Shown one piece after another: positions 1-28,612 of a stretch of DNA of 28,612 nt. Made by a program: the position numbers and the translations under genes. Source of the stretch: a virus (taxonomy: Duplodnaviria > Caudoviricetes); IMG/VR virus record IMGVR_UViG_3300039076_000040, positions 1 to 28,612 of that record. One strand, written 5' to 3'. The stretch's first letter is position 1, and each line of letters begins with the position of its first letter. The notes under the pieces were generated by a model. It was given only the letters and a program-made list of their open reading frames with translations. It had not been told where the DNA came from and made no database searches.

Positions 1-2014
1 AATCCTCATCGTTCCAATCTGCAAAGAAGTGACGACCGAACTCATCCTGCGGTGTGAAGTGCATATTATAATGCTGATGCAACTCCAACTCCCACTTACG
101 TCTTGCGAATGAGTTACCGGCTCCCTTGATTGCGTAGTTCGTAGTGATGGCTACCTTGGGTGACTTACTGAATGGTATCTTAATAGCGTCCTTGTTCTTC
201 TTCTCAAGCGTTAGTCCCTCCGTAATGACAGAGAACAATCGCTCGAAGTCAAAGTATCGTTTAACGTCATCAAAGCATAGTATCTGTGTGTCTGCACTAA
301 GTAACTGATATGGGAAAGACTTCTCAAATGCGAACGCCTTACCATCAATCACCACTAGCTTCTTCATTTGACTCAATGCGTTCATGAATAGACCCTTACC
401 CGTACCACCCTCAGGGTTGTCACTGATGACCTCATCGTTTAGGATGACAGCCGGACAGAACGATAGGTTCTTGTACCCGTGCATAAGGAATCCAATCGTG
501 CTCTCCATGGTAGCTACTCGGTACTCATCGTTACCACAGATGTTCGAGATGAATTGAACATAGTCACACTTGTCAGTGATGTCGCAGATGTTAAAGCTTC
601 TATCAATCACGTGTTCCTTCCATACGTATCCACCTAAGTCCAAGTAGTCAATCGTCTTGATCTCTCCCTTGGATATGTGAACAGCGCAATTCCTGTAGTA
701 CAGGTAAGCTGAGTCCTTGGTGTCCTCGATGAAGTAGATATCAATCGTTGCCAACATAGACAAGAACTCTTCCTTAAAGAATCGTGTGTTGTCCGCGAAG
801 TAGTTGTATAGGCTTATGTCGTCAAGGTTAATTAGATAGTCAAGGATAAAGTCCTTTATCTCCTTCTCCGACGTGTGGTCTATCAAGTTGTTCGTTACCT
901 TCACGAACACGTAGTTCTTACCACCTTCCGGGCAGTACTTGTAGAACCCATTGTCTTCCAAGAACTGCTTGAATAGTATGTGTACTACCTTGATGATTCC
1001 CTTGTCGTTCTTTGACCAAAATGTAGAGTTAGCGTTCTCCTCCTCTACCTTGTTCAGAACTGAATCGATTGTCTCCGTATCCAAATGGGAATCTTGTAGT
1101 TGAATACGTATCTCCTTTTTTGAGACACCACGTCTTAGCTTGGCTTTTATTTGGTTTACTCTCTCCTCGTCCTCGTAGTACTTTGTGCCGAAGTTAGCTG
1201 TGTTCTTGTACGCTGAGTCAATTGTCGTTGCAATCTCAGCTAACGTGAAGTCTTTTGTAGCGAACTGATTAAGTACGTACGATGCAAGGCTCTTGTTGAC
1301 ACCGAAGTCATTGAACGCCATCGCTAGGATGTACGCGTTGTGATTGCGTTGTCCCTCAACCATCGGGTGCTTCTTCTCCCACCACTTGATTAGTATCTCG
1401 ACTACCTTGTTCTCATCGGTGATTGGAATGGTAGCCGTGTCTCTAAACTTTGTTACCTCTTGGTACTCAGGTTCCTCGATGATGTCCCATACAGATGAGT
1501 TCTCGTTCACGAAGATTAACGGGTCGTACGACTCGTAGCATACGCGACTAATGTTCTTTGATGTCTTATCGAAGTATGGTGAGTCAAAGTACTTCTCTAG
1601 GCTGTTGAAGTAGTTAGTGTGATTCTCAGGATCCTTAGGAACCTTTACCAATACCTTTAGTCCGTTACCTGATGGTGATATGAACACTGAGTACACGTAC
1701 TTGTTCTTTGAGATTTGCTCCTTGTCCTGAAGTAACTCCTTTTGTTTTTGGTACCCATCGAAGTCCAAGCAGATGAGTCCGCTGTGTTCCACCAAAGAGT
1801 TGTCTGTACGCTTCGTAAAGGTACCACTGAAGCAAACTGCAGGTAAAAGCTTTTTAAGGTCGTTACGCACGTCCTTACGCTTCTCTGTGCGTATCTTCTT
1901 AACCAAGTCCTTGGACGCACCACTCTTCACCCTATCAAGGATGTTCTCTACATCTCGGTAGAAAGGAGTGTCGGTTTCCTTAATATTTTTGAATATTGTT
2001 ATAGTATATGTCAT
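1..2014 (-). CDS. Primase-helicase: N-terminal BT4734/VirE-N-like primase domain, PriCT-like region, C-terminal SF3/D5-like P-loop helicase (3' end runs off the window)
   Basis: Not in the ORF track because it has no stop in the window. Manual translation from ATG 2014 gives MTYTITIFKNIKETDTPFYRDV...KLLPAVCFSGTFTKRTDNSLVEHSGLICLDFDG (VirE-N-like), Walker A NPEGGTGKG, Walker B ILCFDD and motif C AITTN...RR. Confidence 0.85.
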   Translation of the reverse strand, partial: MTYTITIFKNIKETDTPFYRDVENILDRVKSGASKDLVKKIRTEKRKDVRNDLKKLLPAVCFSGTFTKRTDNSLVEHSGLICLDFDGYQKQKELLQDKEQISKNKYVYSVFISPSGNGLKVLVKVPKDPENHTNYFNSLEKYFDSPYFDKTSKNISRVCYESYDPLIFVNENSSVWDIIEEPEYQEVTKFRDTATIPITDENKVVEILIKWWEKKHPMVEGQRNHNAYILAMAFNDFGVNKSLASYVLNQFATKDFTLAEIATTIDSAYKNTANFGTKYYEDEERVNQIKAKLRRGVSKKEIRIQLQDSHLDTETIDSVLNKVEEENANSTFWSKNDKGIIKVVHILFKQFLEDNGFYKYCPEGGKNYVFVKVTNNLIDHTSEKEIKDFILDYLINLDDISLYNYFADNTRFFKEEFLSMLATIDIYFIEDTKDSAYLYYRNCAVHISKGEIKTIDYLDLGGYVWKEHVIDRSFNICDITDKCDYVQFISNICGNDEYRVATMESTIGFLMHGYKNLSFCPAVILNDEVISDNPEGGTGKGLFMNALSQMKKLVVIDGKAFAFEKSFPYQLLSADTQILCFDDVKRYFDFERLFSVITEGLTLEKKNKDAIKIPFSKSPKVAITTNYAIKGAGNSFARRKWELELHQHYNMHFTPQDEFGRHFFADWNDED

Positions 2015-2019
2015 CTTAG

Positions 2020-2145
2020 TGTCGATTTTATGTCGTTTTCAAATTATAAATCCCTTTATAAATAAGGGTTATGTCGATTCTGTCGATTTTTTCTCCTCGT
2101 ATATAAGAATAAAAAAATATTATATATTTAAATATATATATAGTA
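2020..2145. promoter_or_regulatory. Origin-like element A: four TGTCG(A/T) boxes, central palindrome, AT-rich tract
   Basis: Boxes at 2020, 2031, 2072 and 2081; CCCTT-N7-AAGGG lies between the pairs, followed by an (AT)n-rich tract. Immediately upstream of the primase-helicase. Confidence 0.6.
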
Positions 2146-2185
2146 TAGGGAGGGGTCTTTTGCTTTTATTTAATTATTAGGGGTT

Positions 2186-2211
2186 AAAAAAGGGGAGCGT
2201 TAACTCCCCTT
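2186..2211 (-). terminator. Rho-independent terminator after SSB
   Basis: Minus strand AAGGGGAG-TTAACG-CTCCCCTT followed by a T-run. Confidence 0.8.
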
Positions 2212-3360: not shown

Positions 3361-3468
3361 TTAATCATACTCTTCGTTCTTGTACCTCTCCATGATAAAT
3401 CTCCATGACCTAATCATCTTGAGATGTCGTCTGTGCAATATCTTTTGCATTGGCGTTCTTAGTACCAT
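3361..3468 (-). CDS. Small basic hypothetical protein (35 aa)
   Basis: MVLRTPMQKILHRRHLKMIRSWRFIMERYKNEEYD; start overlaps the nuclease stop (TAATG). Confidence 0.4.
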   Translation of the reverse strand: MVLRTPMQKILHRRHLKMIRSWRFIMERYKNEEYD

Positions 3469-4202
3469 TAGTCTAGGGTCTCGTCAATGTAGTGGTTGTC
3501 TACCTCGTCCAACTGATCGTCTCCGAAGTACGTGTCGTACACCTCAATCGCCTTCTCTACTTTTCTCTCACCACCCAACAAGAAGTTCTCTGTTGGTCTG
3601 AAGATTCCCAATTGACCCGTTAGCTTGTCAATCACAAAGAAGATTAACGGCTTACCGAATAGCTGTTGGTAGATGTACGCTTGGCTGTCGTAGTTGTATG
3701 CCTTCGCTGAGTACTTGAACTTATGGATGTCGCTCGTTGTCTTTAGGTCTATGATGACCTCGTCTGTTACGATGTCAGCCTTACCCTTCCACATACGACC
3801 TTTAATCTCTCCGATTGCGGGTTGCTCGTACACATTTCCATCCTTGTATATCTCGTCAAAGAAGTAGATGTTTTGCTTCATGACTGATGCCAATCGCTCC
3901 ATCTCCTCCTTCTCGCTCTGTAGCATACAGAATGGGATGTTGTTCTCTGCGCAATAGTCCTTGTACAACTTTGTGTTGCGCGTAGATGCCTCAACGAAGT
4001 ACGCGACCTCTGCCTTGTCAGGCTCAATCAACAACTGATGAAAGTATCTGCCCTCTGCAAAGTTTTTGTTGTCCTCGCGTGTTACCCCAAACTCCCTTGG
4101 GTTGCGAAGTAAGACACCGATGTCTGAGTTGGATAGGTACTTCTTTCCCTCTCCACCATAGTACTCGTCATCGTTACGTAGGATGTCAATTACGCTCTCC
4201 AT
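3468..4202 (-). CDS. RecE/exonuclease VIII-like PD-(D/E)XK nuclease (DUF3799-like)
   Basis: YLSNSDI, G..FH..L.EP, KGKAD...IIDLKTT and Y.YD.QAYIY motifs; adjacent to the annealing protein. Confidence 0.8.
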   Translation of the reverse strand: MESVIDILRNDDEYYGGEGKKYLSNSDIGVLLRNPREFGVTREDNKNFAEGRYFHQLLIEPDKAEVAYFVEASTRNTKLYKDYCAENNIPFCMLQSEKEEMERLASVMKQNIYFFDEIYKDGNVYEQPAIGEIKGRMWKGKADIVTDEVIIDLKTTSDIHKFKYSAKAYNYDSQAYIYQQLFGKPLIFFVIDKLTGQLGIFRPTENFLLGGERKVEKAIEVYDTYFGDDQLDEVDNHYIDETLD

Positions 4203-4828
4203 TACTTGAACATATTTTGAATCATCTTACGTGACAGAGCTGACAGCAAGTACTTACGACCTATCTGCTTAACTATCTTGTCCTCACCCAACGCCTTGTT
4301 TGCGTTGATGTACTCCTCAATCTTAGCGAACTCAGGTGTGTTCGGTTTAAGGATTGGCAACTGCGGTTCGTCATCCTCTTTCTTCTCACTATCAACCTTC
4401 TTCTTTGACACAGATGGCTTAGCCGTAGTTAACTCAGGCATATCCTCACCTGTCCACAACTGAAGTCCTAGTCCATGCATAGCGATTGCCTTAGCAGTCG
4501 AACGTTGGATAGCCTTGTTCACGTCCATGGACGTTAGCTTGTCTAATCTAATTGACTGATTACGGAAGTCCATGATTGGTAGGTAGTCGATGTTCTCCAT
4601 CCCCTCCACCTCAACACCAACCTTCACGTATGCTGTGTTGCCATCTGTGAAGTAGTTTAGGTTTGTGTCAGGATTCTCATAGATGATTCTCTTTGCTGTT
4701 GGATAGTTCTCCTTAAGAATCTCCCATGCGTAAGACCACGATAGGTACTTGACGTTACCCTTTGTTTCGATTTTTTCTCGGATGTCTACTGAAGACAGCA
4801 CTCCGAATACTGATTTTTGCTTTTCCAT
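4202..4828 (-). CDS. Sak-like (DUF1071, Rad52-type) single-strand annealing protein
   Basis: YLSWSYAW, LPIMDFRN and DVNKAIQRSTAKAIAMHGLGLQLW.GED motifs. Confidence 0.85.
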   Translation of the reverse strand: MEKQKSVFGVLSSVDIREKIETKGNVKYLSWSYAWEILKENYPTAKRIIYENPDTNLNYFTDGNTAYVKVGVEVEGMENIDYLPIMDFRNQSIRLDKLTSMDVNKAIQRSTAKAIAMHGLGLQLWTGEDMPELTTAKPSVSKKKVDSEKKEDDEPQLPILKPNTPEFAKIEEYINANKALGEDKIVKQIGRKYLLSALSRKMIQNMFK

Positions 4829-11245: not shown

Positions 11246-11269
11246 GACTATTTGGTTTTAAAAGTTAGC

Positions 11270-11317
11270 CCATGTGGTCGGTATCGCTCCGATTGAATGT
11301 ACGTTACATCCACATGG
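11270..11317 (-). ncRNA. tRNA-like element 2
   Basis: CCATGTGG-(ATGTA acg TACAT)tcaa-TCGG-AGCGATA-CCGA-CCACATGG, giving 8+4 = 12 bp stacked to a 7-nt loop. Confidence 0.6.
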
Positions 11318-12766: not shown

Positions 12767-14377
12767 ATGCAAGGACAAGGTTATATGCCGAAGGATTTAT
12801 ACTTCGAGGAGGAGGGAAGACGTAAGTTAATCTCCGGTGTTAAGAAGATGGCAGCAGCTGTCAAGAGTACGTTGGGCCCTCACGGGAACACGGTACTAAT
12901 AGAGTCACCACACCACACACACGGTATTACGGTAACAAAGGATGGAGTAACGGTAGCAAAGGCTATCGAGCTAATGGATCCTGTGGAGAACCTGGCGGTT
13001 AAGATGATGAAAGAGGCATCTGACCGAACGGCTACTACAGCGGGTGACGGAACGACTACGGCCATCGTGTTAACTGAGGCCATGGTGTTAGGTGGTATGG
13101 AGCTAATCAAACCTGAGCACAACAGAACTCAGGTGTTAAGGCACATGACAGAGATAAGTGACTTAGTAGTTGAGCGTCTTAAGAAGAAGAGCAAAAAGGT
13201 CACTACGGGTATGCTAGCGGACGTTGCTACCATCTCTGCGAACAACGACAGGACCATTGGTAAGATAATCGCTGACGTGTACAAGGACGTGGGTAAAACG
13301 GGTATCGTAACGGTTGAGAAGTCTCAGTCGACTACAACATACGCTGAGACCACAGACGGACTACGTGTACAGAGGGGATACCTGTCACCGATGTTTATCA
13401 ACAATCAGGAGAAGGATGAGTGTGTCTTTGACGACACACTTGTATTGGTCTCTGACATGGAGATAGGAAACATCCTACAGATAGAGGCTGTGTTAAAGCC
13501 ACTCGTTAAGGACGGGAAGAAGCTTTTGATCATCGCGCCTTGTTCTACGAACATGACAAACACCCTATCTGCTAACGTAGTTAAGAACGGACTAAAGATA
13601 TGTGCTATCCAACCACCGAACTTCGGGTACAAACAGCACGAGCTGATGCAGGACATCGCGGTAAGTGTTGGTGCTACCTACTTCAGTGAGAAGACGGGTG
13701 ACGACTTGAGCCATATGACGTACGCGGACTTGGGTCATGCGGGTAAGGTAATCGTTGGACGAGACGAGACCATCATCATGACGAGTGATGTGAAGGCTGA
13801 CCAAGCAGAGATAGACGAGAGAGTCGCTCAGCTGTGGAAGGCTAACGAGGCAGCTACGAAAAAGAACGACAAGGACTTCATCTTGGAGCGAATTGCGTCC
13901 CTAACGGGTGGAGTTGGTGTCATCTTTGCGGGTGGAAACACTGACTTGGAGCAAAAGGAGCTGTACGACAGGATTGACGACGCGGTTTGCGCGGTACGTT
14001 CAGCCTTGGAGGAAGGAATTTTGCCGGGTGGTGGTAAAGCCTTGGGAGAAATGAACATATTCGAGGGCTTAGGCTTCGCAACCGACACGGAGGAGAAGGT
14101 AATCGCTGCTAAGATCATGCAGTTGGCTGTAAATATGCCACTGATGCAGATCCTTAAGAACGCGGGCGTACCATTTGAGGACGTAGCGGACTGTATGGTG
14201 AACGATGGCTTCGGATACAACGTAAAAACCGGTGAGAAGGGTGACCTAATCAAGATGGGCGTAATCGATCCGTTAAAGGTAACACGCTCTGCACTGCAAA
14301 ACGCGGTAAGTGTAGCGGTTACGATACTAAGTACTAACGCTATCGTCACGATGGCACGAACAATCGGTGTAGAATGA
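12767..14377 (+). CDS. groEL: Phage-encoded chaperonin GroEL (Cpn60)
   Basis: AVKSTLGPHG, VTKDGVTVAK, AGDGTTTAIVL, ERIASLTGGV, EEGILPGGG and GVIDPLKVTRSALQNAVSVA motifs. Confidence 0.97.
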   Translation: MQGQGYMPKDLYFEEEGRRKLISGVKKMAAAVKSTLGPHGNTVLIESPHHTHGITVTKDGVTVAKAIELMDPVENLAVKMMKEASDRTATTAGDGTTTAIVLTEAMVLGGMELIKPEHNRTQVLRHMTEISDLVVERLKKKSKKVTTGMLADVATISANNDRTIGKIIADVYKDVGKTGIVTVEKSQSTTTYAETTDGLRVQRGYLSPMFINNQEKDECVFDDTLVLVSDMEIGNILQIEAVLKPLVKDGKKLLIIAPCSTNMTNTLSANVVKNGLKICAIQPPNFGYKQHELMQDIAVSVGATYFSEKTGDDLSHMTYADLGHAGKVIVGRDETIIMTSDVKADQAEIDERVAQLWKANEAATKKNDKDFILERIASLTGGVGVIFAGGNTDLEQKELYDRIDDAVCAVRSALEEGILPGGGKALGEMNIFEGLGFATDTEEKVIAAKIMQLAVNMPLMQILKNAGVPFEDVADCMVNDGFGYNVKTGEKGDLIKMGVIDPLKVTRSALQNAVSVAVTILSTNAIVTMARTIGVE

Positions 14378-14616: not shown

Positions 14617-14617
14617 T

Positions 14618-14875
14618 ATGAAAGCAATCGGAAAAAATTTAGTGATTAAGACTGTAGAGGAGGAGATTAAGACCTCCTCCGGTCTACTCTTGTCGGGAGA
14701 GGACTCCAATCAGATGAGGTATAAGAAGGCTGTTGTCGCTGTCGCGGGTACGGACGTGAGTGCTATTGGCACGGGCGACTACATCTACTACGACAAGTCA
14801 AACAGCTTTACGATGGTCATCAACGATGAGCAGTACACAATAATTCAGGAGAGAGACGTGGTGGTTGTACTATAG
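14618..14875 (+). CDS. groES: Co-chaperonin GroES (Cpn10)
   Basis: MKAIGKNLVIK, mobile loop EIKTSSGLLL, VVAVAG, GD and YTIIQERDVVVVL; start set at ATG 14618. Confidence 0.9.
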   Translation: MKAIGKNLVIKTVEEEIKTSSGLLLSGEDSNQMRYKKAVVAVAGTDVSAIGTGDYIYYDKSNSFTMVINDEQYTIIQERDVVVVL

Positions 14876-16952: not shown

Positions 16953-17171
16953 ATGGAACTAAGAACGGTTGTTACAGGCGTAAGACGCGATAGCATTGGG
17001 TTGGGTGACACGATAGAGAAGTTCACGAGGGCAACAGGCATTAAGAAGTTTGTTGACACGGTATCTGATCTAACAGGGGTTGATTGCGGATGTTCCGGTA
17101 GAAAGGAATCCTTAAACGATCCAAACATATTAGTAAATAAATTATTCTATAATAAAAACAAAGACAAATGA
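16953..17171 (+). CDS. Phage protein (GLGDTIEK.T.ATGIK...DCGC..RK..LN)
   Basis: ORF track; recognisable small phage motif. Confidence 0.75.
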   Translation: MELRTVVTGVRRDSIGLGDTIEKFTRATGIKKFVDTVSDLTGVDCGCSGRKESLNDPNILVNKLFYNKNKDK

Positions 17172-17950
17172 GTCAAATTAACGTAGACATCGTAGCACCA
17201 TTTACATCAGGATCTGATTTTGTTACAGTAAATTCAATGAATGTTGCTTATACATCAGCAGGTACTATTCAATTAGTAAATGGGACTTGGCCTGATAAAT
17301 CACCCGCTGTAAATTCAATTGTAATTGGACAAGGTGCAGGAGTAAGCGCATATAGTAACAACAATGTACTTATTGGTGGAGACGCAGGTGGTGTACTTAC
17401 ATCAGCAGGTAACTTTAATGTATTTGTTGGAGAAGGTGCAGGAGGAGCAGTTACATCAGGAACTACTAATACTTTTATTGGGAAGTATGCAGGATGGTCT
17501 CCTTTGAGTACTACAACAGGTAGTAATAATATTTGCATTGGTAATCAATCTAATGCAGCATCAGCATCTGCGAGTAACTCAATTACATTAGGTAACTCAT
17601 CTATCACATCTCTTCGTTGTGCCGTTACATCCATCACATCTTTGTCAGATGCACGTGATAAAAAAGAGGTAAAAGACTTAAACGTAGGTCTTGAGTTTAT
17701 TGATGGTCTTCGCCCTGTAACATTTGTTTGGGATGACAGAGACGAGAATGGTAAACATGACATCGCTGACTTTGGATTCATTGCTCAAGACTTGAAAGCT
17801 GCTGAAGATTCAGTAGATATGTCTGAGGTACTTAAGTTAGTTTACGATGAGAATCCTGAGAAATTAGAAGCATCATATGGTAAACTAATTCCTATCTTAG
17901 TTAAAGCTATTCAGGAGCTATCAGCAGAAGTTAAACAATTAAAAAAATAA
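17168..17950 (+). CDS. Short fibre/spike with C-terminal intramolecular chaperone (peptidase S74) domain
   Basis: Gly/Asn beta-roll repeats (N..IG..AG), then SDARDKK...LRPVTFVW...GFIAQD...Y..LIPILVKAIQEL coiled coil. Confidence 0.85.
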   Translation: MSQINVDIVAPFTSGSDFVTVNSMNVAYTSAGTIQLVNGTWPDKSPAVNSIVIGQGAGVSAYSNNNVLIGGDAGGVLTSAGNFNVFVGEGAGGAVTSGTTNTFIGKYAGWSPLSTTTGSNNICIGNQSNAASASASNSITLGNSSITSLRCAVTSITSLSDARDKKEVKDLNVGLEFIDGLRPVTFVWDDRDENGKHDIADFGFIAQDLKAAEDSVDMSEVLKLVYDENPEKLEASYGKLIPILVKAIQELSAEVKQLKK

Positions 17951-17956
17951 ATAGTA

Positions 17957-18247
17957 ATGGCAACAGTACCATCAGGAACGCAGTTTATAGGATTAGCTGC
18001 TAACTATTCAATTCCTGAACTACGTTCAGCTTTAATTAACGCTCAAAGTGGAGCATACACAATTGAAGACATTTCAAACGCAGTAGGGGGCGGAGGAATT
18101 GAGGCAAATGGATTTACAATCGTAGGCCCATTGATGGCAAATATTACACTTCCTGAGAATGCAACTGTAAACTTTACAGGCCCTCTATCAATGGGAGCAG
18201 GTTATGTATTAACAGTGCCTACAAGTACAACTTTAAATATTTTATAA
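17957..18247 (+). CDS. Virion decoration/fibre-like protein, anchor family member 1
   Basis: N-terminus shared with 18249 and 19185; beta-rich C-terminus. Confidence 0.7.
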   Translation: MATVPSGTQFIGLAANYSIPELRSALINAQSGAYTIEDISNAVGGGGIEANGFTIVGPLMANITLPENATVNFTGPLSMGAGYVLTVPTSTTLNIL

Positions 18248-18248
18248 T

Positions 18249-18905
18249 ATGGCAACGATACCATCAGGGCAGAAGTTTCACACGGTAGCAAGTACTGTAG
18301 TGACAACAAATTTAGGCTCAGCTTTAGCTAACGCACAGCGTGAGATTTTTACAATGCAGGACATCATCGACACTACACCTTCAGGCATTCATGTTTTAGT
18401 TAAGCCGAAAGCAGGTAATTACATAACTGCTATGATTGGTAATGGTGGGTTCGGTGGATTCGCTCAGCAAATTGCTAACTCGATTCAATTAATACCTTTT
18501 ATACCAAGTCAAACAATTTCATATACATCTTTAGCAATAAATATCGTGTCGCCATCAGCAGGAGCCTTGGGAAGGATTTTGATTTACTCAAGTTTAAATG
18601 GGCTACCCACTACTAAATTGTATGAGAGTGCATCACTTGACCTATCAACAGGTGGATATAAAACCGCAACAATATCAGGAAATTTTATTAAGGGTACTAC
18701 TTATTGGCTCGGTGTTCAAAGTAATAGTTCATCCGTATACTTCGATGGTTATCCATCAAATAGTATGTTAGCTTTAACCTATAATGGAACTACGCCTTCC
18801 GCAATATTAGTAAGCGCAGCAATCGGTTCAGCACCTACGACTATATCTCCTGCATCAACAAGTTATATAGATAGTCAAACTACTGCTATTATTAACATAC
18901 TTTAA
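18249..18905 (+). CDS. Virion decoration/fibre-like protein, anchor family member 2
   Basis: Shared N-terminus; Ser/Thr/Gly-rich beta-sandwich-like domain (IY..NGLP..L, G.TYWLG). Confidence 0.75.
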   Translation: MATIPSGQKFHTVASTVVTTNLGSALANAQREIFTMQDIIDTTPSGIHVLVKPKAGNYITAMIGNGGFGGFAQQIANSIQLIPFIPSQTISYTSLAINIVSPSAGALGRILIYSSLNGLPTTKLYESASLDLSTGGYKTATISGNFIKGTTYWLGVQSNSSSVYFDGYPSNSMLALTYNGTTPSAILVSAAIGSAPTTISPASTSYIDSQTTAIINIL

Positions 18906-18914
18906 ATAATAACC

Positions 18915-19070
18915 ATGACACAAGTAAGAAACGAAATCTACAACGACAACGGAATAGTTGAAGTAGTATTTATTGAGGTTAATCTACCAACACAAGAAGA
19001 ATTGATTGCTCAAAAAGAAGCACAGCTTCTTGCAATGTATAATGAATTAAAAGCTCTTAAAGGAGAGTAA
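18915..19070 (+). CDS. Small coiled-coil protein (51 aa), possible fibre chaperone
   Basis: MTQVRNEIYNDNGIVEV...QEELIAQKEAQLLAMYNELKALKGE. Confidence 0.65.
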   Translation: MTQVRNEIYNDNGIVEVVFIEVNLPTQEELIAQKEAQLLAMYNELKALKGE

Positions 19071-19120
19071 TAAGTATATTTACATTAAACATTATTTAGT
19101 GATTCCAAAATAAAGTAATC

Positions 19121-19172
19121 GAGCCACCCTAATCAGGTGGCTTTTTCATTTTAAAATAATCCTTATATTTGT
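19121..19172 (+). terminator. Terminator plus -7 promoter module, copy 1
   Basis: GAGCCACC-ctaatca-GGTGGCTT-TTT, then TATATTTG (19164-19171). Confidence 0.75.
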
Positions 19173-19184
19173 AAAAAAAAAGAT

Positions 19185-19661
19185 ATGGCAATTATAGCAA
19201 ACGACACGCAGTTCATCGGAATTGCACCAAGCATTGACCTGACAGGCAAAAAGTCAGCAATCTTAAACGAGCAGACAGAGCCGGTAACTATGGCGGATAT
19301 CATCGAGACAGTTGGTGGTGGGCCAAGCTACTTAGTGTACACTGCTTTATTAACTCAGAGTGGAACTAGTGCTCCTGTAGCTACTGTATTAGAAAATACT
19401 TTAGGTGGAAATCCTGTTTGGGCAAGAGGAGGACAAGGAAGTTTTAATATAACACTTTCAGGTGCATTTCCTATTGGAAAAACTATTATTTTTCTAACAA
19501 TACGTGGTGATGATGCAGATGGAAGAATAATAGCAGAAATTAATTATAATAGTTCTCCCAATGCAAATCAAAGAGGATTTGTTTTTAAAAATGCTTCAAC
19601 AAATTTAAATGCAGATGGTATAGGAACTCTTTCTAGTATTGAAATCAGAGTATACCCATAA
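19185..19661 (+). CDS. Virion decoration/fibre-like protein, anchor family member 3
   Basis: Shared N-terminus; YLVYTALLTQSGTSAP...LENTLG...IEIRVY domain. Confidence 0.8.
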   Translation: MAIIANDTQFIGIAPSIDLTGKKSAILNEQTEPVTMADIIETVGGGPSYLVYTALLTQSGTSAPVATVLENTLGGNPVWARGGQGSFNITLSGAFPIGKTIIFLTIRGDDADGRIIAEINYNSSPNANQRGFVFKNASTNLNADGIGTLSSIEIRVYP

Positions 19662-19683
19662 ATAAATAATTACACAACAATAC

Positions 19684-19735
19684 AAAGCCACTTTCACAGG
19701 TGGCTTTTTTGTTTTAAAATATTGCTTATCTTTGT
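19684..19735 (+). terminator. Terminator plus -7 promoter module, copy 2
   Basis: AAAGCCAC-tttcacag-GTGGCTTT-TTT, then TATCTTTG (19727-19734). Confidence 0.75.
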
Positions 19736-19752
19736 CTTATAAATAATTTGAC

Positions 19753-20223
19753 ATGGCATATCAAAAACTGCAGACAAGCACAGCATTAAACATAGTAACA
19801 TCTGATAACGCAAATATTCCCTTTCCTAATGTAGTAGCATCGGGTACAAGTGATACTGTTACAGCTAATCAACTTAATGATACAACGGGTACGTTCGTAA
19901 CATCAAACGTACAGACAGGTGACGTGGTTGTTAACCTAACAACAAACCAATCTGCTACCGTAGTAAGGGTAATTGACGAGGACAACTTGGTAATGAACGC
20001 CAATATCTTTTTAGCATCAGGTGATGACTTTGTTATCTACACAAACAATAACAAGGAGGCCTGTGTTCTATACATTGGAGCAGGTGGAACTCTTAGAGTC
20101 TTGACCGCTTCAAACAACGACGTTACGTTCTTCGGGATCTTAGGTGGATCATTTTTACCTGTACAGGTACTAAAGGTGTTCCAAACAGGCACATCAGCAT
20201 CTGAGATTGTAGCTCTTTGGTAA
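19753..20223 (+). CDS. Virion structural protein
   Basis: C-terminal LYIGAGGTLRV...GSFLPVQVLKVFQTGTSASEIVALW, typical of small phage spike-base/adaptor proteins. Confidence 0.75.
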   Translation: MAYQKLQTSTALNIVTSDNANIPFPNVVASGTSDTVTANQLNDTTGTFVTSNVQTGDVVVNLTTNQSATVVRVIDEDNLVMNANIFLASGDDFVIYTNNNKEACVLYIGAGGTLRVLTASNNDVTFFGILGGSFLPVQVLKVFQTGTSASEIVALW

Positions 20224-20224
20224 G

Positions 20225-20368
20225 ATGATTACAAACGGTATACAGATAACAAACGAGATTGGGATAACGGGTGAGAGCTCGATATCTCCAATATTCCCTG
20301 ACGAACGTGTGACGGACGACGGGATTAATCGTTATACAGACGACGGTCAAGAACGCATAATAGACTAA
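20225..20368 (+). CDS. Small acidic protein (47 aa)
   Basis: MITNGIQITNEIG...RVTDDGINRYTDDGQERIID; fills the gap before fibre 1. Confidence 0.6.
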   Translation: MITNGIQITNEIGITGESSISPIFPDERVTDDGINRYTDDGQERIID

Positions 20369-20370
20369 TC

Positions 20371-22239
20371 ATGGCAGGTATCAAGATAGTTAACTTACCG
20401 GCATTAGGCAGGAACTTAGCGTCCACTGACCTATTTGAGCTCTCGTTAGCGGGTGGCACGGGTAGTCGCAAGATTACAGGTCAGGAGATCATCAGTGCAA
20501 TCCCGTCGGGAATCACAATCGGTACGACTGCAATCACTTCGGGTACTGTTGGACGTGTATTGTTTGAAGGTACGGGAAATGTAGTGCAAGAATCAGCTAA
20601 CTTGTTTTGGGATAATACGAACAAGCGTTTAGGGATTGGAACGAGTAGTCCAAGCACAACATTAGTTCTACAACAAGACGGAAGTTCATTTATTAGATTA
20701 GTTAGAAATTTATCCACTACTGAATTTGGTATGTTTATTACCAATGTAAGAAATGGCGCGGGTAATGCGGGAGGTGTTTTCACTGCTAACAACTTTGAGT
20801 TTAGGGATAGCGTAGGTACAACTGCTTACCTAACAATTAACGCGGGCAACGTCCTAATCAACACCACCACAGACGCAGGATACAAGCTAGATGTGAACGG
20901 TACTGCGAGGGTGAGTAGTTATTTACATTGTTTTGGCGATGTTTACGCTCAACGTGGTACTAATATGATAGGCTTGACAAATTGGAGTGTAAATAGTAAC
21001 AACCCTACTTTATATGCTCAAACTGATATTTACATAAGCCCAAATATTGGTAATGCTTTTATCTTTAAAAACACGGGAAACTTACTAATAGGAACAACAA
21101 CCGATAATGGTTATAAACTTGACGTTAACGGTACTGCGAGAATCAATTCAATTAACATTGGACTTGGAGCGGGACAAGTTATATCAAATACCGCTATTGG
21201 ATTAAATGCATTAATTACAAATACTACGGGTGCAAATAATACAGTTTTCGGATGTGTTGCAGGAAGGTCAAATATAGATGGAAGTAACAATACTTTTATC
21301 GGTCGAGCATCGGGAGAAAATAATACAAGTGGTGGAAACAATACATTTCTTGGAGCGGTGGCGGGTACTGCGAATTCATCGGGAGGTAACAATGTTTCCA
21401 TTGGTAGAGAAACGGGTTCTGTAAATACTACGGGTAGCCTAAATACTTCCATTGGAACTAGAGCGGGTAATTCAAATACAACGGGTTCAAATAATATTTT
21501 TATTGGTTACTTATCAACGGGCGTTTCAGCAACGGAATCAAATAGAACTTGGATAGGTAATTCAACAACTGCAACAACTTGGTTAGCGGGCAACGTCCTA
21601 ATAGGAACAACAACCGATGCGGGTTATAAGCTTGACGTTAACGGTGATACTAAAACTTTAGGTCTATTAACTGCCTACGGAATTTCAACCAACTTAAGTG
21701 ATATGGCAATCTACAATACAACCAATAACACGGGTTTTATAAGATTTATCACACAAACTGCTAGTGCTCAAGCTGAAAGAATGAGAATAGCTAACACGGG
21801 AAATGTTCAGATAGGAACAACAACCGATGCGGGTTTCAAGTTAGATGTGAACGGTACTGCGAGGTTTATTGGTAATGTTTTTTTACCAACAGATATATTA
21901 ATTGGTTCGGGTTCAAGTACGTCTGTTTGGAATAGAATAATGCTTTATGATAGTGGAAATGGTTCTATTAACATAACAATGCACAATCCCGCTTGGTATA
22001 TTAGGCACAATGCAAATATGAGTATGAATGGTGCTATGCAAGTAGGAAGTAATACTTCTGCAGTCGCATCCGCTGTATTACAAGCAACGTCAACCACACA
22101 AGGCTTCCTACCTCCACGAATGACACAGGTACAGAGGAACGCTATCGCATCTCCGGCTATAGGTCTTGAGATCTATCAGACAGATGCAACAGAAGGAAAG
22201 TATATTTATAAATCGTCCGGATGGACATATATCGGTTAA
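20371..22239 (+). CDS. Modular fibre/receptor-binding protein 1
   Basis: 622 aa, G/T/N-rich; four GNV.I.TTTD.G.KLDVNG repeats; C-terminal GFLPPRMT domain. Confidence 0.85.
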   Translation: MAGIKIVNLPALGRNLASTDLFELSLAGGTGSRKITGQEIISAIPSGITIGTTAITSGTVGRVLFEGTGNVVQESANLFWDNTNKRLGIGTSSPSTTLVLQQDGSSFIRLVRNLSTTEFGMFITNVRNGAGNAGGVFTANNFEFRDSVGTTAYLTINAGNVLINTTTDAGYKLDVNGTARVSSYLHCFGDVYAQRGTNMIGLTNWSVNSNNPTLYAQTDIYISPNIGNAFIFKNTGNLLIGTTTDNGYKLDVNGTARINSINIGLGAGQVISNTAIGLNALITNTTGANNTVFGCVAGRSNIDGSNNTFIGRASGENNTSGGNNTFLGAVAGTANSSGGNNVSIGRETGSVNTTGSLNTSIGTRAGNSNTTGSNNIFIGYLSTGVSATESNRTWIGNSTTATTWLAGNVLIGTTTDAGYKLDVNGDTKTLGLLTAYGISTNLSDMAIYNTTNNTGFIRFITQTASAQAERMRIANTGNVQIGTTTDAGFKLDVNGTARFIGNVFLPTDILIGSGSSTSVWNRIMLYDSGNGSINITMHNPAWYIRHNANMSMNGAMQVGSNTSAVASAVLQATSTTQGFLPPRMTQVQRNAIASPAIGLEIYQTDATEGKYIYKSSGWTYIG

Positions 22240-22256
22240 CAATAAAAAATAAAACA

Positions 22257-22529
22257 ATGGAAACAACAACACCACAAGGAGGAATTGCTATCGTACCGGT
22301 AGTATACCCACTAAACGAAGGGACAGCGACTTTTATGTCTGTCTTAGTTCTTAACTTCCCAACGGACGCAGTTACTGCTACAACTTATTGGCAGTTGCTT
22401 ACAGATGAGGGCAAACAATTGGCTCAGGGTAACTATACCTTGACTGAAGAAGAGTTTGCAGCTTGGGGAACAGACAATAGCTACGTCAACCAATGTGTTG
22501 CAGATGCTATCGGAGTAGTAATCATTTAA
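22257..22529 (+). CDS. Small acidic fibre-associated protein/chaperone
   Basis: GNYTLTEEEFAAWGTDNSYV; start trimmed to ATG 22257. Confidence 0.7.
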   Translation: METTTPQGGIAIVPVVYPLNEGTATFMSVLVLNFPTDAVTATTYWQLLTDEGKQLAQGNYTLTEEEFAAWGTDNSYVNQCVADAIGVVII

Positions 22530-22539
22530 TCTATATATC

Positions 22540-22701
22540 ATGAATCAAATCGTTTTAAATCAAGAGAACTTAGCAAAGTTAGAGTCATTCATTCAAGAGA
22601 TGCCTGTAAAGTACGGTCTTCCACTTATTCAGTTCCTTAACGAGCTTGCTAAAGAGCAAGGCGGAGAGCCTGAGGCGTTGGAGACTGAGACAGTCGGATA
22701 A
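22540..22701 (+). CDS. Small helical protein (53 aa), fibre-associated
   Basis: MNQIVLNQENLAKLESFIQEMPVKYGLPLIQFLNEL... Confidence 0.65.
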   Translation: MNQIVLNQENLAKLESFIQEMPVKYGLPLIQFLNELAKEQGGEPEALETETVG

Positions 22702-22712
22702 AAAAAACAAAC

Positions 22713-24287
22713 ATGGCAGGAATAAAGATCGTCAACCTACCCGCAGTAGGTAGGGATTTAATTAGTACGGACCTCTTTGAGCTATCCTTAGTGGGTGGCT
22801 CAGGGAGCCGTAAGATTACGGGTCAGGAGATAATGAATGCGTCCAAGCTAAACGTAGGAGGCACCCCCATTATCAATGGTACCGTAGGACGTATCTTGTT
22901 CCAAGGCGCATCAGACACCTTAGGCGAGTCCGCTAACCTATTTTGGGATAATACGAATAGTATATTGCAAATAACAAAGGCTTTAGGTGCTACTATGCGT
23001 TTGAATTGTACTTCATCAAATCCATCTAAATTTCAATTTACGCAAGAATTAAGTGTTGGTGTTCCAACTGAAATTGGTTTTATATCTAATCAGTTTGGTA
23101 CGGGAATGATACTTCAATCTTTTAATAGTCTTTACTTTAATGCTAACAATGCTGAAAAAATGCGAATTGTTAGTGGTACGGGCAACGTCCTAATCAACAC
23201 TACCACAGACGCAGGATACAAGCTTGACGTTAATGGTACTGCGAGGGTGCAAGGGAAACTTACCGTATCAACGGGAGGAATGGATTTAACGGGTACGCTA
23301 ACAAATTATAGCGGTTATCAAGGTTATGGACAGATGCAATTATTTAGCGGTTCTGCGTTTCAAATGTTTAACTCTGCTAATAACTCAAAAATATCTTTTC
23401 AATATACAACTGCAACGGGATTAAGTTTATCAATAAACCCCGAAAATTTGAGTGGCATTCTAAATGGGTTAGCAATTGGTCCTTCGTTAGTAGCTTCGGC
23501 TAATAATAATGTATTAGTTGGATTAGATATTACACCTACGTTCACTAATGGTGCATTTACGGGGGTAACTAACTTAGGTTTAAGAATGCAAAATGGAGTA
23601 GCAGTATTTGGTGCATCAACTTATACAACATTATTATATAGTGAAATACCAAAATTGTTTGTTAATGGTGGAAGTAATTTATTAGGAACTACATCAATAG
23701 GACCAAGTCGTATTTATTTTAGTGGTAATAATATTACTTGGGAAAGCACGGGAATAACAAATAATACACCCGAATGGAGAGCAGATGCTAGTGGTATTAA
23801 ATTTGGAAACTATTTAACTTTACCATTAAGAATATCAATAGGAGGAACTGAAAATGCAAGGTTTTTCTCAACGGGTAACGTAGCTATCGGAACAACAACC
23901 GATGCGGGTTTCAAGTTAGATGTTAACGGTACTACTCGATTAAATGGAAATTTAACTTTCCAAAGTTCAGCTTGGGTTTTAGATAATGTGAATGCGGTAA
24001 TGTACCGAACTAGTTTTAATACTGAATCTATTGCGTTTAATGGAAGTAGAATAACTTTTACCGATGCTAATGGATTCGTGTTTAATAGTACAAATGCGGG
24101 GGCAACATTAACTGCATCATCAATTCTAGACATTCAATCCACTACAAAAGGCTTCCTACCTCCGCGAATGACGAACGCACAACGCACAGCCATAGCTAGC
24201 CCGGCTGTTGGACTGATTGTATACTGTACTGATGTTACAGAGGGGTTATGGATTTACAAATCATCAGGATGGACATTTATAGTATAA
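22713..24287 (+). CDS. Modular fibre/receptor-binding protein 2
   Basis: 524 aa; N-terminus paralogous to fibre 1, two repeats, same C-terminal domain as fibre 1. Confidence 0.85.
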   Translation: MAGIKIVNLPAVGRDLISTDLFELSLVGGSGSRKITGQEIMNASKLNVGGTPIINGTVGRILFQGASDTLGESANLFWDNTNSILQITKALGATMRLNCTSSNPSKFQFTQELSVGVPTEIGFISNQFGTGMILQSFNSLYFNANNAEKMRIVSGTGNVLINTTTDAGYKLDVNGTARVQGKLTVSTGGMDLTGTLTNYSGYQGYGQMQLFSGSAFQMFNSANNSKISFQYTTATGLSLSINPENLSGILNGLAIGPSLVASANNNVLVGLDITPTFTNGAFTGVTNLGLRMQNGVAVFGASTYTTLLYSEIPKLFVNGGSNLLGTTSIGPSRIYFSGNNITWESTGITNNTPEWRADASGIKFGNYLTLPLRISIGGTENARFFSTGNVAIGTTTDAGFKLDVNGTTRLNGNLTFQSSAWVLDNVNAVMYRTSFNTESIAFNGSRITFTDANGFVFNSTNAGATLTASSILDIQSTTKGFLPPRMTNAQRTAIASPAVGLIVYCTDVTEGLWIYKSSGWTFIV

Positions 24288-24290
24288 GAC

Positions 24291-25871
24291 ATGGCAGGAA
24301 TTAAAATAGTAAACTTACCCGCGTTAGGCAGAAACTTAGCGTCAACAGACCTATTCGAGCTGTCATTGGCAGGGGGTACCGGTAGCCGTAAGATCACCGG
24401 ACAAGAAATTATCAGTGCAATCCCATCGGGAATCACAATAGGAACGACTGCAATCACATCGGGTACTGTTGGACGTGTATTGTTTGAAGGTACGGGAAAT
24501 GTAGTGAGTGAATCGGCTAACTTGTTTTGGGATAATACGAATGTAGCATTACAATTAGGAACAACCTCAACACGCATATTTACTTTTAGACCACAAGATA
24601 CTACAAGTATTTATGGTAATTCATCTTCAATTAGAGGAGGACAAAGTGGAAGAATTGATTTTTGTAGTGCAACTGATTTAACACACATTTCAGATGGTAG
24701 AATTTTATTAAGTGTAGGAGCAAGCGTCAATGGTCCTTACTTACAAATCGGAGCAACAAATATTGTATTTGCTATTGCAGCAGCTGAAAGAGCAAGATTC
24801 GCAGCAACAACGGGTAATTTCCTAATCAACACCACCACAGACGCAGGATTCAAGCTTGACGTTAATGGTACTGCGAGGGTGAGTGGGAATACTACTATTT
24901 TGACAAATGGTGGTAGGTTAACTTTGCAACAAAGCATTTTGGGTACAGCATTTAATGGAATAAATTTTAATGACTTCTCGGGAGCTATAAATTCATCAAT
25001 ATTAAATAACCAAAACACGGGAGAATTTAGAATATATACGGGTGCTTCGTATTTTCCTACGTTCTACTCAAATAATGCCGAGCGAATGCGTATTGATACT
25101 TCGGGTAACGTAGGTATTGGAACGAGTACGCCGCAATATAAATTTCACGTTAATGTAGCAGACGTAACATACTCTACAATATTTAGTTCAACAACGGGTA
25201 GCGTTCGTTTTTTACCATATTTATCTTCCGTATATGGTGCAAATATATCAACCTTAAATGCGGGACAAACCGCACAAATACCTTTATCTTTAAGTGCCAA
25301 TAAGTTTATTTTTGAGAATGGCAACGTCCTCATCGGAACAACAACCGATGCGGGTTTCAAGCTTGACGTTAATGGGACTGCGAGGGTGCAAGGTCGTCTT
25401 CAGATAGGCACTCCTTCTACAACGGGTGAAGTTTTTGCAAATGGAAATACTACTCTAAGTATTGGAGGAGGGCAAATTACAAATGCAATTACATTTAGTC
25501 AAATAAATGACGGAAGAATCCCTATTAATAATGCGGAAGGCTCATTAGCATTAATGACTATTAGTCAGCGTAATATTGGTGGTGGCAATGGTTTTGGCAA
25601 TGTTATAAGAATGACGGGTGCTGTTGAAAATACTATAAATACAAATACATTCAACAATATTCAAACAAACACCGTTATAAATACTTCGGGTGGTACAACA
25701 ATTTATCGAGGTTTTTATCACAATCCAACATTAACCGCAACGGTAGGGGTTACGCACTATGCCTTCCATTCCACAAGCGGACGAGTAAGACTCGAGGGTC
25801 TGCCTACCTCACCTGCGGGACTTAGTGCAGGGGACTTATATAATAACTCAGGAGTTTTAATGATAGTATAA
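24291..25871 (+). CDS. Modular fibre/receptor-binding protein 3
   Basis: 526 aa; first ~83 aa almost identical to fibre 1, two repeats, different C-terminus (LPTS.AGL..GDLYNNSGVL). Confidence 0.85.
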   Translation: MAGIKIVNLPALGRNLASTDLFELSLAGGTGSRKITGQEIISAIPSGITIGTTAITSGTVGRVLFEGTGNVVSESANLFWDNTNVALQLGTTSTRIFTFRPQDTTSIYGNSSSIRGGQSGRIDFCSATDLTHISDGRILLSVGASVNGPYLQIGATNIVFAIAAAERARFAATTGNFLINTTTDAGFKLDVNGTARVSGNTTILTNGGRLTLQQSILGTAFNGINFNDFSGAINSSILNNQNTGEFRIYTGASYFPTFYSNNAERMRIDTSGNVGIGTSTPQYKFHVNVADVTYSTIFSSTTGSVRFLPYLSSVYGANISTLNAGQTAQIPLSLSANKFIFENGNVLIGTTTDAGFKLDVNGTARVQGRLQIGTPSTTGEVFANGNTTLSIGGGQITNAITFSQINDGRIPINNAEGSLALMTISQRNIGGGNGFGNVIRMTGAVENTINTNTFNNIQTNTVINTSGGTTIYRGFYHNPTLTATVGVTHYAFHSTSGRVRLEGLPTSPAGLSAGDLYNNSGVLMIV

Positions 25872-26367: not shown

Positions 26368-26943
26368 ATGGTTCGTACATTCAAAGATATAGAGCTCTTA
26401 GATAGAGTCAAACAACTCGACTCTTATAAAGAGATACCTACCGGCTATTGGCTATTGGGTGTTAGGTCTAAAGAAGACACACCAAATAAGTTTGACGATA
26501 AGATATACCTATTCAAGGGCGAAGAGTTCATAGAGGTAACAACAGCTACAACCAATCCGGGAACACCTACACTAAATCAATTTGAGAAGGTTAATAACGA
26601 TGGTGCTGCTATAGTTAAGTCTGATGAGTGGTACTACAAGCTTTGGAAGTACGGAAAGCACAACGGGAAGGTAGAGGCATTGCTTCAACTAGGTAGCAAG
26701 ATAAAAGTATACCGTGATACCGACAAAGACGTTAAGTCTGAGGAACAGGGTAAGCTACAAGAAGGATACTACGGTATCAACTTCCATCCTAACACTTATA
26801 ACCTAGATGGTGTATCAGGAGATAGTATTGGATGGTACTCAGCCGGATGCCAAGTGGTAAACAACTTGACTAAGTACAAGACCATGATCAGGTTATTGAA
26901 GACTGAGAAGTTAGTTACTTACTGCTTAATAAATGAGTTCTAA
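26368..26943 (+). CDS. Putative endolysin with L,D-transpeptidase (YkuD)-like His/Cys motif
   Basis: GINFH-x17-SAGCQV; positioned between holin and spanin. Confidence 0.6.
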   Translation: MVRTFKDIELLDRVKQLDSYKEIPTGYWLLGVRSKEDTPNKFDDKIYLFKGEEFIEVTTATTNPGTPTLNQFEKVNNDGAAIVKSDEWYYKLWKYGKHNGKVEALLQLGSKIKVYRDTDKDVKSEEQGKLQEGYYGINFHPNTYNLDGVSGDSIGWYSAGCQVVNNLTKYKTMIRLLKTEKLVTYCLINEF

Positions 26944-27224
26944 TGAGAAACAAACTAGCAGGTACCAAGACAGGTACATCGAAGACAGCTAAGTACTACC
27001 AAGGTAATACGGAGGCGCGTAAGAAGAAATTAGCTTACGACTCTAAGTACCAAGACACTCCGTCAAGACAAAAGTATAGAGCGGAGCTACAAAAAATAAA
27101 TAGAGAGAAGGGTACGCACGGAAATGGAGACGGAAAGGACGTAGCACATACCTCAAAGACCAAGACCCGTATGCAAGCTCAATCTAAAAACCGCGCTGAT
27201 AAGAAGCGCTCATTCTTTAAATAA
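26943..27224 (+). CDS. Basic protein with degenerate HNH-like C-terminus
   Basis: GDGKDVAH...KNRA; Lys/Arg-rich. Confidence 0.65.
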   Translation: MRNKLAGTKTGTSKTAKYYQGNTEARKKKLAYDSKYQDTPSRQKYRAELQKINREKGTHGNGDGKDVAHTSKTKTRMQAQSKNRADKKRSFFK

Positions 27225-27670
27225 TGAAACGAATTGCGCTCATATTTGTTACAGTGCACCTATTATTTTCGTGCTCTGCAAGATATCATCTTAATAAGGC
27301 TATTAAGAAGGGTTATAAGTGTGAGGAGGTATCTGATACAATCAAGATAACATCAGTAGACTCGTTCCCTGTCATCGTACACGACTCAATCGTTTGGGAG
27401 AAGGTAATCATTCAAAAGGATACAATCATTCGTAACAAGACATCCTACGTACCTAAGACGAGATTTGAGACACGCATTGAATATAAGTACAAGACAAAGT
27501 ACATAAAAGCTGAAGCTCAAAAGGTTAAGTATCAAAATAAATACATAACAAAGTACAAAACTCGTTGGTTATTCGTAATATTGTCTTTTATATTAGGTTT
27601 TTTATTAAGAGTATCACTAAGCGAAACATTCCGTAGTAGAGTCAGTCTACTTTTTAATTTATTTAAATAA
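27224..27670 (+). CDS. Unimolecular spanin candidate
   Basis: N-terminal lipobox LLFSC, beta-rich DT/DS repeats and a C-terminal TM WLFVILSFILGFLL. Confidence 0.65.
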   Translation: MKRIALIFVTVHLLFSCSARYHLNKAIKKGYKCEEVSDTIKITSVDSFPVIVHDSIVWEKVIIQKDTIIRNKTSYVPKTRFETRIEYKYKTKYIKAEAQKVKYQNKYITKYKTRWLFVILSFILGFLLRVSLSETFRSRVSLLFNLFK

Positions 27671-27675
27671 GATTT

Positions 27676-28612
27676 ATGGGTAAAAAAATGGGTCGTCCTG
27701 TAGTAAGTAAGGGTGTTCCTAGGGTTAGGCTTAATCCTCAGGAATTCGATTTGATAAAACAGTTCAGGGCAATTAAGGACAAGTCCAATGAGATGGGTCT
27801 TAACGAAAACGATGTAAAGCATGGTTGGATTAAGACAAAGGACGCATCACTATTCTTTGCCAACCCATCCTTTAACTCCGGTAAAGAACTAGACCTAGAC
27901 TTCGAGAAGATACTCGAGAGTGCTCCCAAACTAAACATAGAGAAGGTAGGCAAGAAGGTCTACGATGGAGAGTTTGACAAGCTAGTATTTACAGACGTAC
28001 ACATTGGTATGGACGCTAGCGACAAAGGGCGTTCGTTGTACCCAACAGAGTGGAACGAGGACATACTATTCGAGCGATTGGAGAAGATGGTGTCCTACAC
28101 ACTAGCCAAACAGAACAGCAACGTGCTTTACCTGCTTGACCTAGGAGACTACCTAGATGGGTTCAATGGTCAGACTACACGTGGTGGTCACTCACTGCCT
28201 CAGAACATGAGCAATCAAAAAGCGTTTGACGTAGGCTTTACGTTTAAGTCAATGCTAATAACGTACCTAGCACCATTCTACGACACCATTCACGTGCGTA
28301 ATATCTGTAACGATAACCATGCCGGAGACTTCTCTTACTTCGTAAATCAGTTCTTTAAGAAGTACATCGAGAGAGACCTAAAGAATGTTAAGGTAACCAA
28401 TCAGACACAGTTTATTGATTACGAGATAATTGGAAACTACTGCTTTGTTACTACTCACGGAAAGGACACGCACAATTTAAAGTTCGGTTTTAAACCTAAG
28501 ATTGACCCCGGGCAAATCAATAGGATTATAGGATACCTAAACACTAACCAACTACTTAATAAAGGTTACGAGATAATCTTTGAGAAGGGTGACAGCCACG
28601 TGTACCTATTTG
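27676..28612 (+). CDS. Calcineurin-like metallophosphoesterase (runs off the window)
   Basis: Manual translation: FTDVHIG, DLGDYLDG, NDNH, THG and GDSH motifs. Confidence 0.8.
   Translation, partial: MGKKMGRPVVSKGVPRVRLNPQEFDLIKQFRAIKDKSNEMGLNENDVKHGWIKTKDASLFFANPSFNSGKELDLDFEKILESAPKLNIEKVGKKVYDGEFDKLVFTDVHIGMDASDKGRSLYPTEWNEDILFERLEKMVSYTLAKQNSNVLYLLDLGDYLDGFNGQTTRGGHSLPQNMSNQKAFDVGFTFKSMLITYLAPFYDTIHVRNICNDNHAGDFSYFVNQFFKKYIERDLKNVKVTNQTQFIDYEIIGNYCFVTTHGKDTHNLKFGFKPKIDPGQINRIIGYLNTNQLLNKGYEIIFEKGDSHVYLF

Follow-up and report, generated by a model that had tools for sequence, protein, structure and literature searches.

Loss of the tetramer CCAG from a phage genome fragment and its association with a putative small phage nuclease

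Phage T4 degrades the host chromosome with endonucleases II and IV, while its own DNA, which carries hydroxymethylcytosine, is spared, so that T4 discriminates by base modification. The present study deals with a 28,612-nucleotide stretch of DNA from a tailed phage (IMG/VR record IMGVR_UViG_3300039076_000040, positions 1 to 28,612; hereafter the window), from which the tetramer CCAG and its complement CTGG are almost absent, and with NUC, a small gene of related phages that encodes a putative nuclease. Unlike in T4, whose endonucleases have other folds, the discriminator here would be a purged 4-bp word. We consider it rather likely that the NUC of this lineage cuts or nicks CCAG and, as predicted, shreds the host chromosome, that phage DNA is spared by absence of the site, and that the purge in the window is a legacy of recent NUC loss.

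The loss resembles restriction-site avoidance in virulent phages, in which a short word disappears from both strands genome-wide through synonymous change, as described in the accessible text of PMC6286503. Palindromic words are also purged in the present phage clade, as in classical avoidance; the difference is that here an asymmetric word follows a phage gene and its active site, not a known host system. A CCAG ratio of 0.11 is given for halovirus Hardycor1 in the available part of PMC7911831. Chloroviruses and marseilleviruses carry restriction-modification (R-M) endonucleases that act at short sites of host or competitor DNA, as proposed here for NUC; according to the sections seen of 10.1101/2019.12.21.884833, they protect themselves by a cognate methyltransferase, whereas none was found beside NUC and protection apparently comes from site absence. 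NixI of the mobile element PLE is likewise a small nuclease with a motif preference, and PLE1 lacks the motif (PMC9410903, available text). According to the same text, however, the NixI motif is 8 bp long and rare, PLE2 and PLE10 contain it, protection is reported to be sequence-independent, and the target is the helper phage. A precedent for self-purge paired with a phage nuclease was not found in the literature searched, with most subscription journals, REBASE and supplements lying outside the search.

Among cultured phages, Maribacter phage Panino, Elemovirus and Callevirus (Pervagoviridae) are alike in capsid. The capsid protein of G001, the nearest complete relative of the window (64,114 bp; the two align over 17,551 bp at 86.5% identity), is 54% identical to that of Panino, 46% to those of Flavobacterium elemo phages and 41% to that of Cellulophaga phi38:1, and GroEL/GroES are annotated in elemoA and phi38:1. 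We infer a Bacteroidota host for the present phage because these capsid relatives infect Flavobacteriia. The cultured phages differ in having neither a NUC homologue (searched) nor a CCAG purge, with observed/expected counts in the first 50 kb of 222/286, 153/182 and 112/224. Matches in cell genomes did not assign a host; they were short contigs in metagenome-assembled genomes of mixed taxa and are likely mis-binned phage DNA.

CCAG depletion and its association with NUC

The window (GC content 39.9%) contains no CCAG and a single CTGG, at position 12992 in groEL and within a CCTGG, exactly as a manual scan in the initial annotation had reported. A maximal-order Markov model predicts 107.8 CCAG/CTGG sites on both strands (z -12.5, the lowest among all tetramers; Poisson p 1.7e-45), in line with the earlier rough figure of about 100. 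The neighbouring words described there as ubiquitous are indeed plentiful (CCAA 122, CCAT 113, CCAC 74, CTGA 105, CTGT 94, CTGC 86). When the codons of 52 hand-picked open reading frames (ORFs; 23,349 bp of coding sequence) were shuffled synonymously 300 times, 102 sites were expected against 1 observed, far from the codon-adjusted expectation, and all three reading frames were depleted for CCAG and CTGG alike. GATC (34/107, observed/expected) and CTAG (54/85) are only partially depleted in the window.

The avoided word in the main clade is exactly CCAG, because every flanking base is represented at the 69 sites that remain in 73 purged relatives. A longer or degenerate motif was rejected for this clade, as none appears in the residual-site contexts. 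The depletion extends beyond CCWGG, as had been proposed, and avoidance of CCWGG (Dcm) alone was also rejected, yet the relative G059 keeps a separate CCAGG purge (0/54).

Comparison of gene content among relatives pointed to NUC (P0001), a 137-residue ORF at 38759-39172 of G001. Three sets of loci were compared, namely the best 80 of 382 anchored on GroEL, the best 80 anchored on the helicase, and the best 80 of 117 anchored on NUC. In the GroEL set, the observed/expected ratio of CCAG is at most 0.13 at 73 loci and 0.53-0.87 at 7, and the purged palindromes differ between lineages. Five helicase-anchored loci have NUC (ratios 0, 0, 0, 0.23 and 0.44) and 75 do not (0.38-1.14, except L118 at 0.19). 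Among the NUC-anchored loci, 78 are at or below 0.13, and the two exceptions (0.67 and 0.72) have an arginine at the catalytic lysine and a 5-residue deletion. We pooled 166 related sequences (duplicates L117 and L210 dropped; L231 classed as intact by eye). With the E-x-K motif of NUC intact, 82 of 84 are at or below 0.13, the remaining two being members of a variant clade described below. Where NUC is absent (n=77), 75 lie at 0.38-1.14, one at 0 and one at 0.19; where the catalytic lysine is lost (n=5), the ratios are 0.05, 0.26, 0.48, 0.67 and 0.72, so that CCAG has mostly been regained. A check of the 41 records at least 90% complete found NUC in 16, and 24 of the 25 without it are unpurged by locus counts. 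The loss can be complete over whole records (0/263 expected in G001; 0/350 and 0/305 elsewhere), and a set of 80 metagenome loci, partly from the same genomes as the earlier sets, holds 7 CCAG sites against 4,020 expected.

Nine losses or inactivations of NUC with CCAG return are nested among carriers (G033, G005/G006, G043, G003, L124/125, the L129 group, the L119 group, G002 and L253/254), and one (G012) is without return; these counts come from a FastTree helicase tree of 140 tips in which some supporting nodes are weak. Several of the loss lineages regained CCAG while GATC or CTAG stayed at zero. G033, which is 83% identical to G001, cleanly lacks NUC and has 38 of 161 expected CCAG sites, spread along the record and reached by many substitution routes. 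Visual inspection of loci without NUC showed no other nuclease family in its place.

Two intact-NUC genomes that are not purged keep nearly only CCAGR. The base after CCAG is A 21, G 18, C 0 and T 0 times in G058, and A 26, G 24, C 5 and T 3 times in G057. Across the six loci of this clade, two of which are the G057 and G058 records, lysine replaces the conserved R55 with further changes nearby, and the next base is A 81, G 32, C 2 and T 0 times; 46 other new loci with R55 hold 3 CCAG sites in all. The variant clade thus appears to purge only CCAGY, which would tie the NUC sequence to the motif.

The purge therefore follows the presence, catalytic integrity and sequence variant of NUC, which favours a phage-encoded agent. 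The initial annotation had proposed strong selection by a host system recognising an asymmetric 4-bp site, and comparison across related phages. Selection and the asymmetric word are borne out, but the purge does not follow an identified host system, and a nuclease of the phage lineage is the more likely agent than host restriction, a BREX-like system or a toxin, although the host may also contribute.

Two other phage genes were tried and rejected. A VRR-NUC-like gene is found in genomes with and without the purge, and shielding of unpurged genomes by a phage methylase is not supported, as C5-methylase-like ORFs were found only in G003 (51793-52464 and 60278-60952), which carries a dead NUC allele. 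We also observed that the end of G006 (57,000-69,453) is CCAG-dense and strand-biased, unlike the rest of that record, and is possibly foreign DNA or a recent acquisition.

The putative nuclease and how it may act

NUC is a member of Pfam family PF24579 (PDDEXK_14; 29.2 bits against a cut-off of 25), and 28 of 52 alignment rows match phrog_7141. The labels of these families say only 'putative endonuclease' or unknown function and give no specificity, and PF24579 holds 2,339 proteins at E<=0.001. Our searches used a profile built from our own alignment, the PF24579 profile having missed the G001 NUC itself. The structure model (predicted local distance difference test, pLDDT, 90.8) has a PD-(D/E)XK alpha-beta core, which places NUC in this superfamily by fold. 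Its top fold neighbours are Hjc/Hje-type chains (VIA Z 11.1, 10.2 and 9.5; for Hjc, root-mean-square deviation 2.5 over 104 aligned residues); NhoI and I-Ssp6803I score 7.8 each, where Z below 8 is weak, and DpnI is also among the neighbours. Foldseek gave no Protein Data Bank (PDB) match at E<=0.001 (best 3.9e-3, to Hjc), a PDB sequence search gave no relative, and the close structural relatives are uncharacterised proteins from uncultured phages. Residues E12, D34, D36, E51 and K53, which include the E-x-K motif, are invariant in the 52 rows, which had been chosen as intact. Taken together with the co-variation, these features suggest that NUC likely cuts or nicks CCAG/CTGG DNA. Hjc-like Holliday-junction resolvases act as dimers on junction structure, largely regardless of sequence, and such a role would not predict co-variation with one tetramer. 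Homing endonucleases such as I-Ssp6803I have long, rare targets and move into empty alleles; the predicted NUC target is 4 bp, its locus is constant, and clean empty alleles exist.

The gene lies within 1.5 kb of the end of a giant gene at 85 of 89 loci, the other 4 being undetermined, and NUC identity is correlated with helicase identity (rho 0.55, from non-independent pairs). The NUC of G001 is closest to that of L198 (77%), though their helicases are not nearest neighbours. We infer middle-phase expression, because NUC closes the replication-side operon, overlapping the stop codon of the preceding gene. Searches for a cognate methyltransferase matched PF01555 in 1 of 29 records and PF00145 in none of the 5 records run; a crude scan flagged a methylase motif at 1 of 84 intact-NUC loci, and none is evident in the G001 ORF list. 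NUC would thus resemble a virus-encoded restriction enzyme, yet it departs from Type II R-M in having no linked cognate methyltransferase in the searches run. The NUC profile matched 0 of 401 sampled cell genomes of the phylum of G063 (no positive control was included), and PADLOC gave no convincing match.

Diverged relatives (P0123-P0272) often have no N-terminal helix, and many are without E-x-K, in open frames of 120-135 residues; these may possibly have been repurposed as DNA-binding proteins. Two distant relatives used as queries (P0181 and P0204) returned no loci, and P0149 returned only ordinary intact NUC loci, of which 8 were new and all had CCAG 0.

In the proposed mechanism, NUC would be expressed along with the replication genes and cut or nick the host chromosome at unmodified CCAG sites, which lie 50-300 bp apart. 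The chromosome would be its main target, serving nucleotide salvage and host shut-off. Phage DNA would be spared through its purged sites, without a partner methylase; a new CCAG arising in the phage would be eliminated by selection, and after death of the gene the sites would drift back. The target is plentiful: in 19 samples of cell genomes from the Bacteroidota side, counted after a 213-bp piece had been set aside, CCAG recurs at intervals of 55-321 bp, at 0.52-1.18 of expectation.

A second small PD-(D/E)XK-like family (L074:13244-13618; loci L465-L519) surfaced in a search for longer NUC forms, which gave one protein that joins a dead-looking NUC to a different PD-(D/E)XK-like domain. This second family has no profile similarity to NUC; among the loci collected before, G012 included, it was found only in L074. 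All 55 of its viral loci lack CATG almost entirely (3 sites in 622 kb where 1,636 are expected, at GC contents of 25-48%), and the GroEL marker of the present phage family is seen in only 1 of the 55. It appears to be an independent parallel to NUC and CCAG. Two proteins, P0122 (NUC dead-looking) and P0138, are fusions of the second family with NUC and could be real replacements or assembly chimeras. Further asymmetric words are absent or rare: CGACG (0/29, 0/18 and 0/37 in records among G010, G059, G061 and G012), CACTG (0/32 in G061, 1/39 in G012), ACGGG (0/49 in G061), CGTC (3/61 in G012) and GACC (0 in L506, L508, L510 and L512). Such words may point to additional nucleases of phages or to enzymes of their hosts.

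More broadly, there is a slightly better than even chance that restriction-like endonucleases of several unrelated families, solitary and methylase-free, occur in aquatic phages (CCAG, its CCAGY variant, CATG), that they tell self from non-self purely by site purge, that part of the supposed host-driven avoidance, palindromes included, is self-avoidance, and that specificity can be read from the missing word. If so, the common interpretation of words missing from phage genomes would be reversed and a modification-free route to self/non-self discrimination would exist. The uncharacterised family PF24579 would gain a testable specificity, including a natural change within one clade from CCAG to CCAGY, and a missing word together with a small nuclease gene would predict a site in genome mining. 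A 137-residue enzyme with an asymmetric 4-bp site could then serve as a useful nickase or cutter.

Counter-evidence and alternative explanations

Several findings weigh against a NUC-driven purge. NUC is not in the window; by the gene order of G001 (window position 1 corresponds to G001 44573), its locus would lie about 5.4 kb beyond the left end. Sequencing run X1 holds 99% of the sampled words of the window and may be its source, hence is not independent; in a contig of this run exactly the 399 bp of NUC are missing and the junction is that of G033, at a depth of 10.7 against 10.4 for the window-matching contig. The complete genome G012 has no NUC and yet CCAG 0/270, and is only 72% alike to its sister on the tree; in L453 CCAG is 0/64 although the active site looks dead; and G005 has a dead allele with CCAG still at 0.05. 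Recent loss, which is calibrated for the window only, would fit these cases, and nothing beyond it explains G012 and L453. Some palindrome is purged in 73 of 84 NUC carriers and 25 of 77 non-carriers, so host range is confounded. The tips are mutually related and were chosen as the best 80 matches of the anchor searches, and the shift from CCAG to CCAGY is one evolutionary event. Of 30 distant NUC relatives listed, 24 lack E-x-K yet keep open frames, which may point to a role other than catalysis. Purging of CATG is also seen where the second family is absent, in 33 of 84 and 4 of 77 sequences; since, in addition, a crude scan found a methylase-like motif at 15 of the 55 second-family loci, host restriction contributes to CATG purges too.

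The genome of the window very probably lacks NUC; we stop short of certainty because no single X1 contig spans both the window and the NUC locus. Coverage of the primase part of G001 by X1 contigs is poor. At control tetramers, the window and G001 differ at roughly a third of sites. Had the window branch been free of selection, about 9 regained CCAG sites would be estimated against the 1 seen, which is a derived synonymous change. Therefore selection would have acted along most of the branch, and either the loss of NUC is recent or NUC carriers that share the host keep up the purge. The purge of the window is probably a legacy after recent NUC loss.

One alternative is that a host defence acting on CCAG (Type IIS, IIG or III, or phosphorothioate) drives the purge, with NUC tracking host range or cutting host-modified CCAG DNA, and with gene and purge decaying together after a host switch. 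The version in which NUC cuts host-marked CCAG would fit the sequence data. This would account for the purged genomes without a working NUC (G012, L453 and likely the window) and for the more frequent palindromic purges of carriers, and NUC has two modification-dependent enzymes, NhoI and DpnI, among its neighbours in fold. Bacterial CCAG-specific methylation exists (H. pylori A45, with a signal in T. phaeum; PMC10689673, available text), and CpsCAG/CCpsAG is mentioned once for gut microbes, beside C*AG, C*CA and C*CGG, in the phosphorothioate literature as far as accessible. However, the same specificity would be needed in hosts of phages of 32-49% GC with differing palindromic purges; outside the carrier clade none of the NUC-less tips is CCAG-purged, though some purge GATC, CATG, CTAG or CCGG; CCAG returns while palindromic purges persist; and the cultured Flavobacteriia relatives are unpurged. 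The accessible text of Rusinov et al. (PMC6286503) also reports no systematic avoidance of Type I or III sites. We regard this explanation as unlikely.

Another possibility, which we find quite unlikely, is that NUC is a CCAG cutter whose main pay-off is against co-infecting phages or mobile elements, or which is maintained selfishly, with NUC-less relatives staying purged through hosts shared with carriers. G012 and the window would then need no very recent loss, and the clean drop-out of NUC as a cassette and the affinity of the G001 and L198 genes would be expected. Competitor exclusion has been proposed for marseillevirus R-M (10.1101/2019.12.21.884833), and NixI is used against ICP1 (PMC9410903), both as given in the portions available. 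On the other hand, a 4-bp cutter would strike the far larger host chromosome at each infection, most loss lineages regain CCAG, and NUC stays at one locus with its identity correlated with that of the helicase.

Erosion of CCAG without selection by motif-specific mutagenesis (such as 5-methylcytosine deamination or a DNA-modifying toxin), which the initial annotation had offered as an alternative and which could draw on the enrichment of CCCG/CGGG in the window (117 against 57 expected), is largely refuted and highly improbable, as the loss is essentially complete in whole records, compensation is spread over CCGG, CCCG, GCAG, CCTG and CCAA, the deamination product CTAG is lower, not enriched, in purged genomes, and G033 regained its sites by many routes.

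Other features of the window

Features of the window are listed with their coordinates below.

Features of the 28,612-nucleotide window and the basis of each assignment
Feature	Position	Strand	Basis
Window, part of a phage genome of ~64 kb, with CCAG/CTGG purged from both strands	1..28612	.	k-mer counts; alignment to G001
Primase-helicase-like gene (BT4734-like_N, DUF5906), truncated by the left end	1..2014	-	domain matches
Exonuclease VIII-like and Sak-like annealing genes (recombination module)	3468..4828	-	phrog_412, phrog_659
groEL chaperonin, clade marker	12767..14377	+	phrog_5725, E 5e-134; 99% amino acid identity to L001/G001
CTGG, sole site	12992..12995	+	likely recent regain; synonymous change in a Leu codon (CTG in the window, CTA in G001, L002 and L003)
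groES co-chaperonin	14603..14875	+	phrog_3188, E 9e-14
Tail spike/fibre-like and other structural genes, CCAG-free	17168..25871	+	PHROG matches for the 260-, 156- and 622-residue ORFs
Endolysin-like gene through to metallophosphoesterase-like gene, incomplete at the right end	26368..28611	+	phrog_33083, phrog_704

In the structural block, likeness of the 524- and 526-residue ORFs to the 622-residue ORF was seen by eye; the three tail-fibre-like genes in the region 20371-25871 are paralogues whose N-termini are nearly identical and which contain repeated internal motifs. The region 11245-12767 is gene-poor, and both the coding strand and the GC skew switch there, which may mark an origin or a genome end. 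A lone minus-strand gene lies within the plus-strand block at 14881-15324 (phrog_17028; its homologue in MW202828 is annotated as a repressor) and is kept in all six complete relatives compared.

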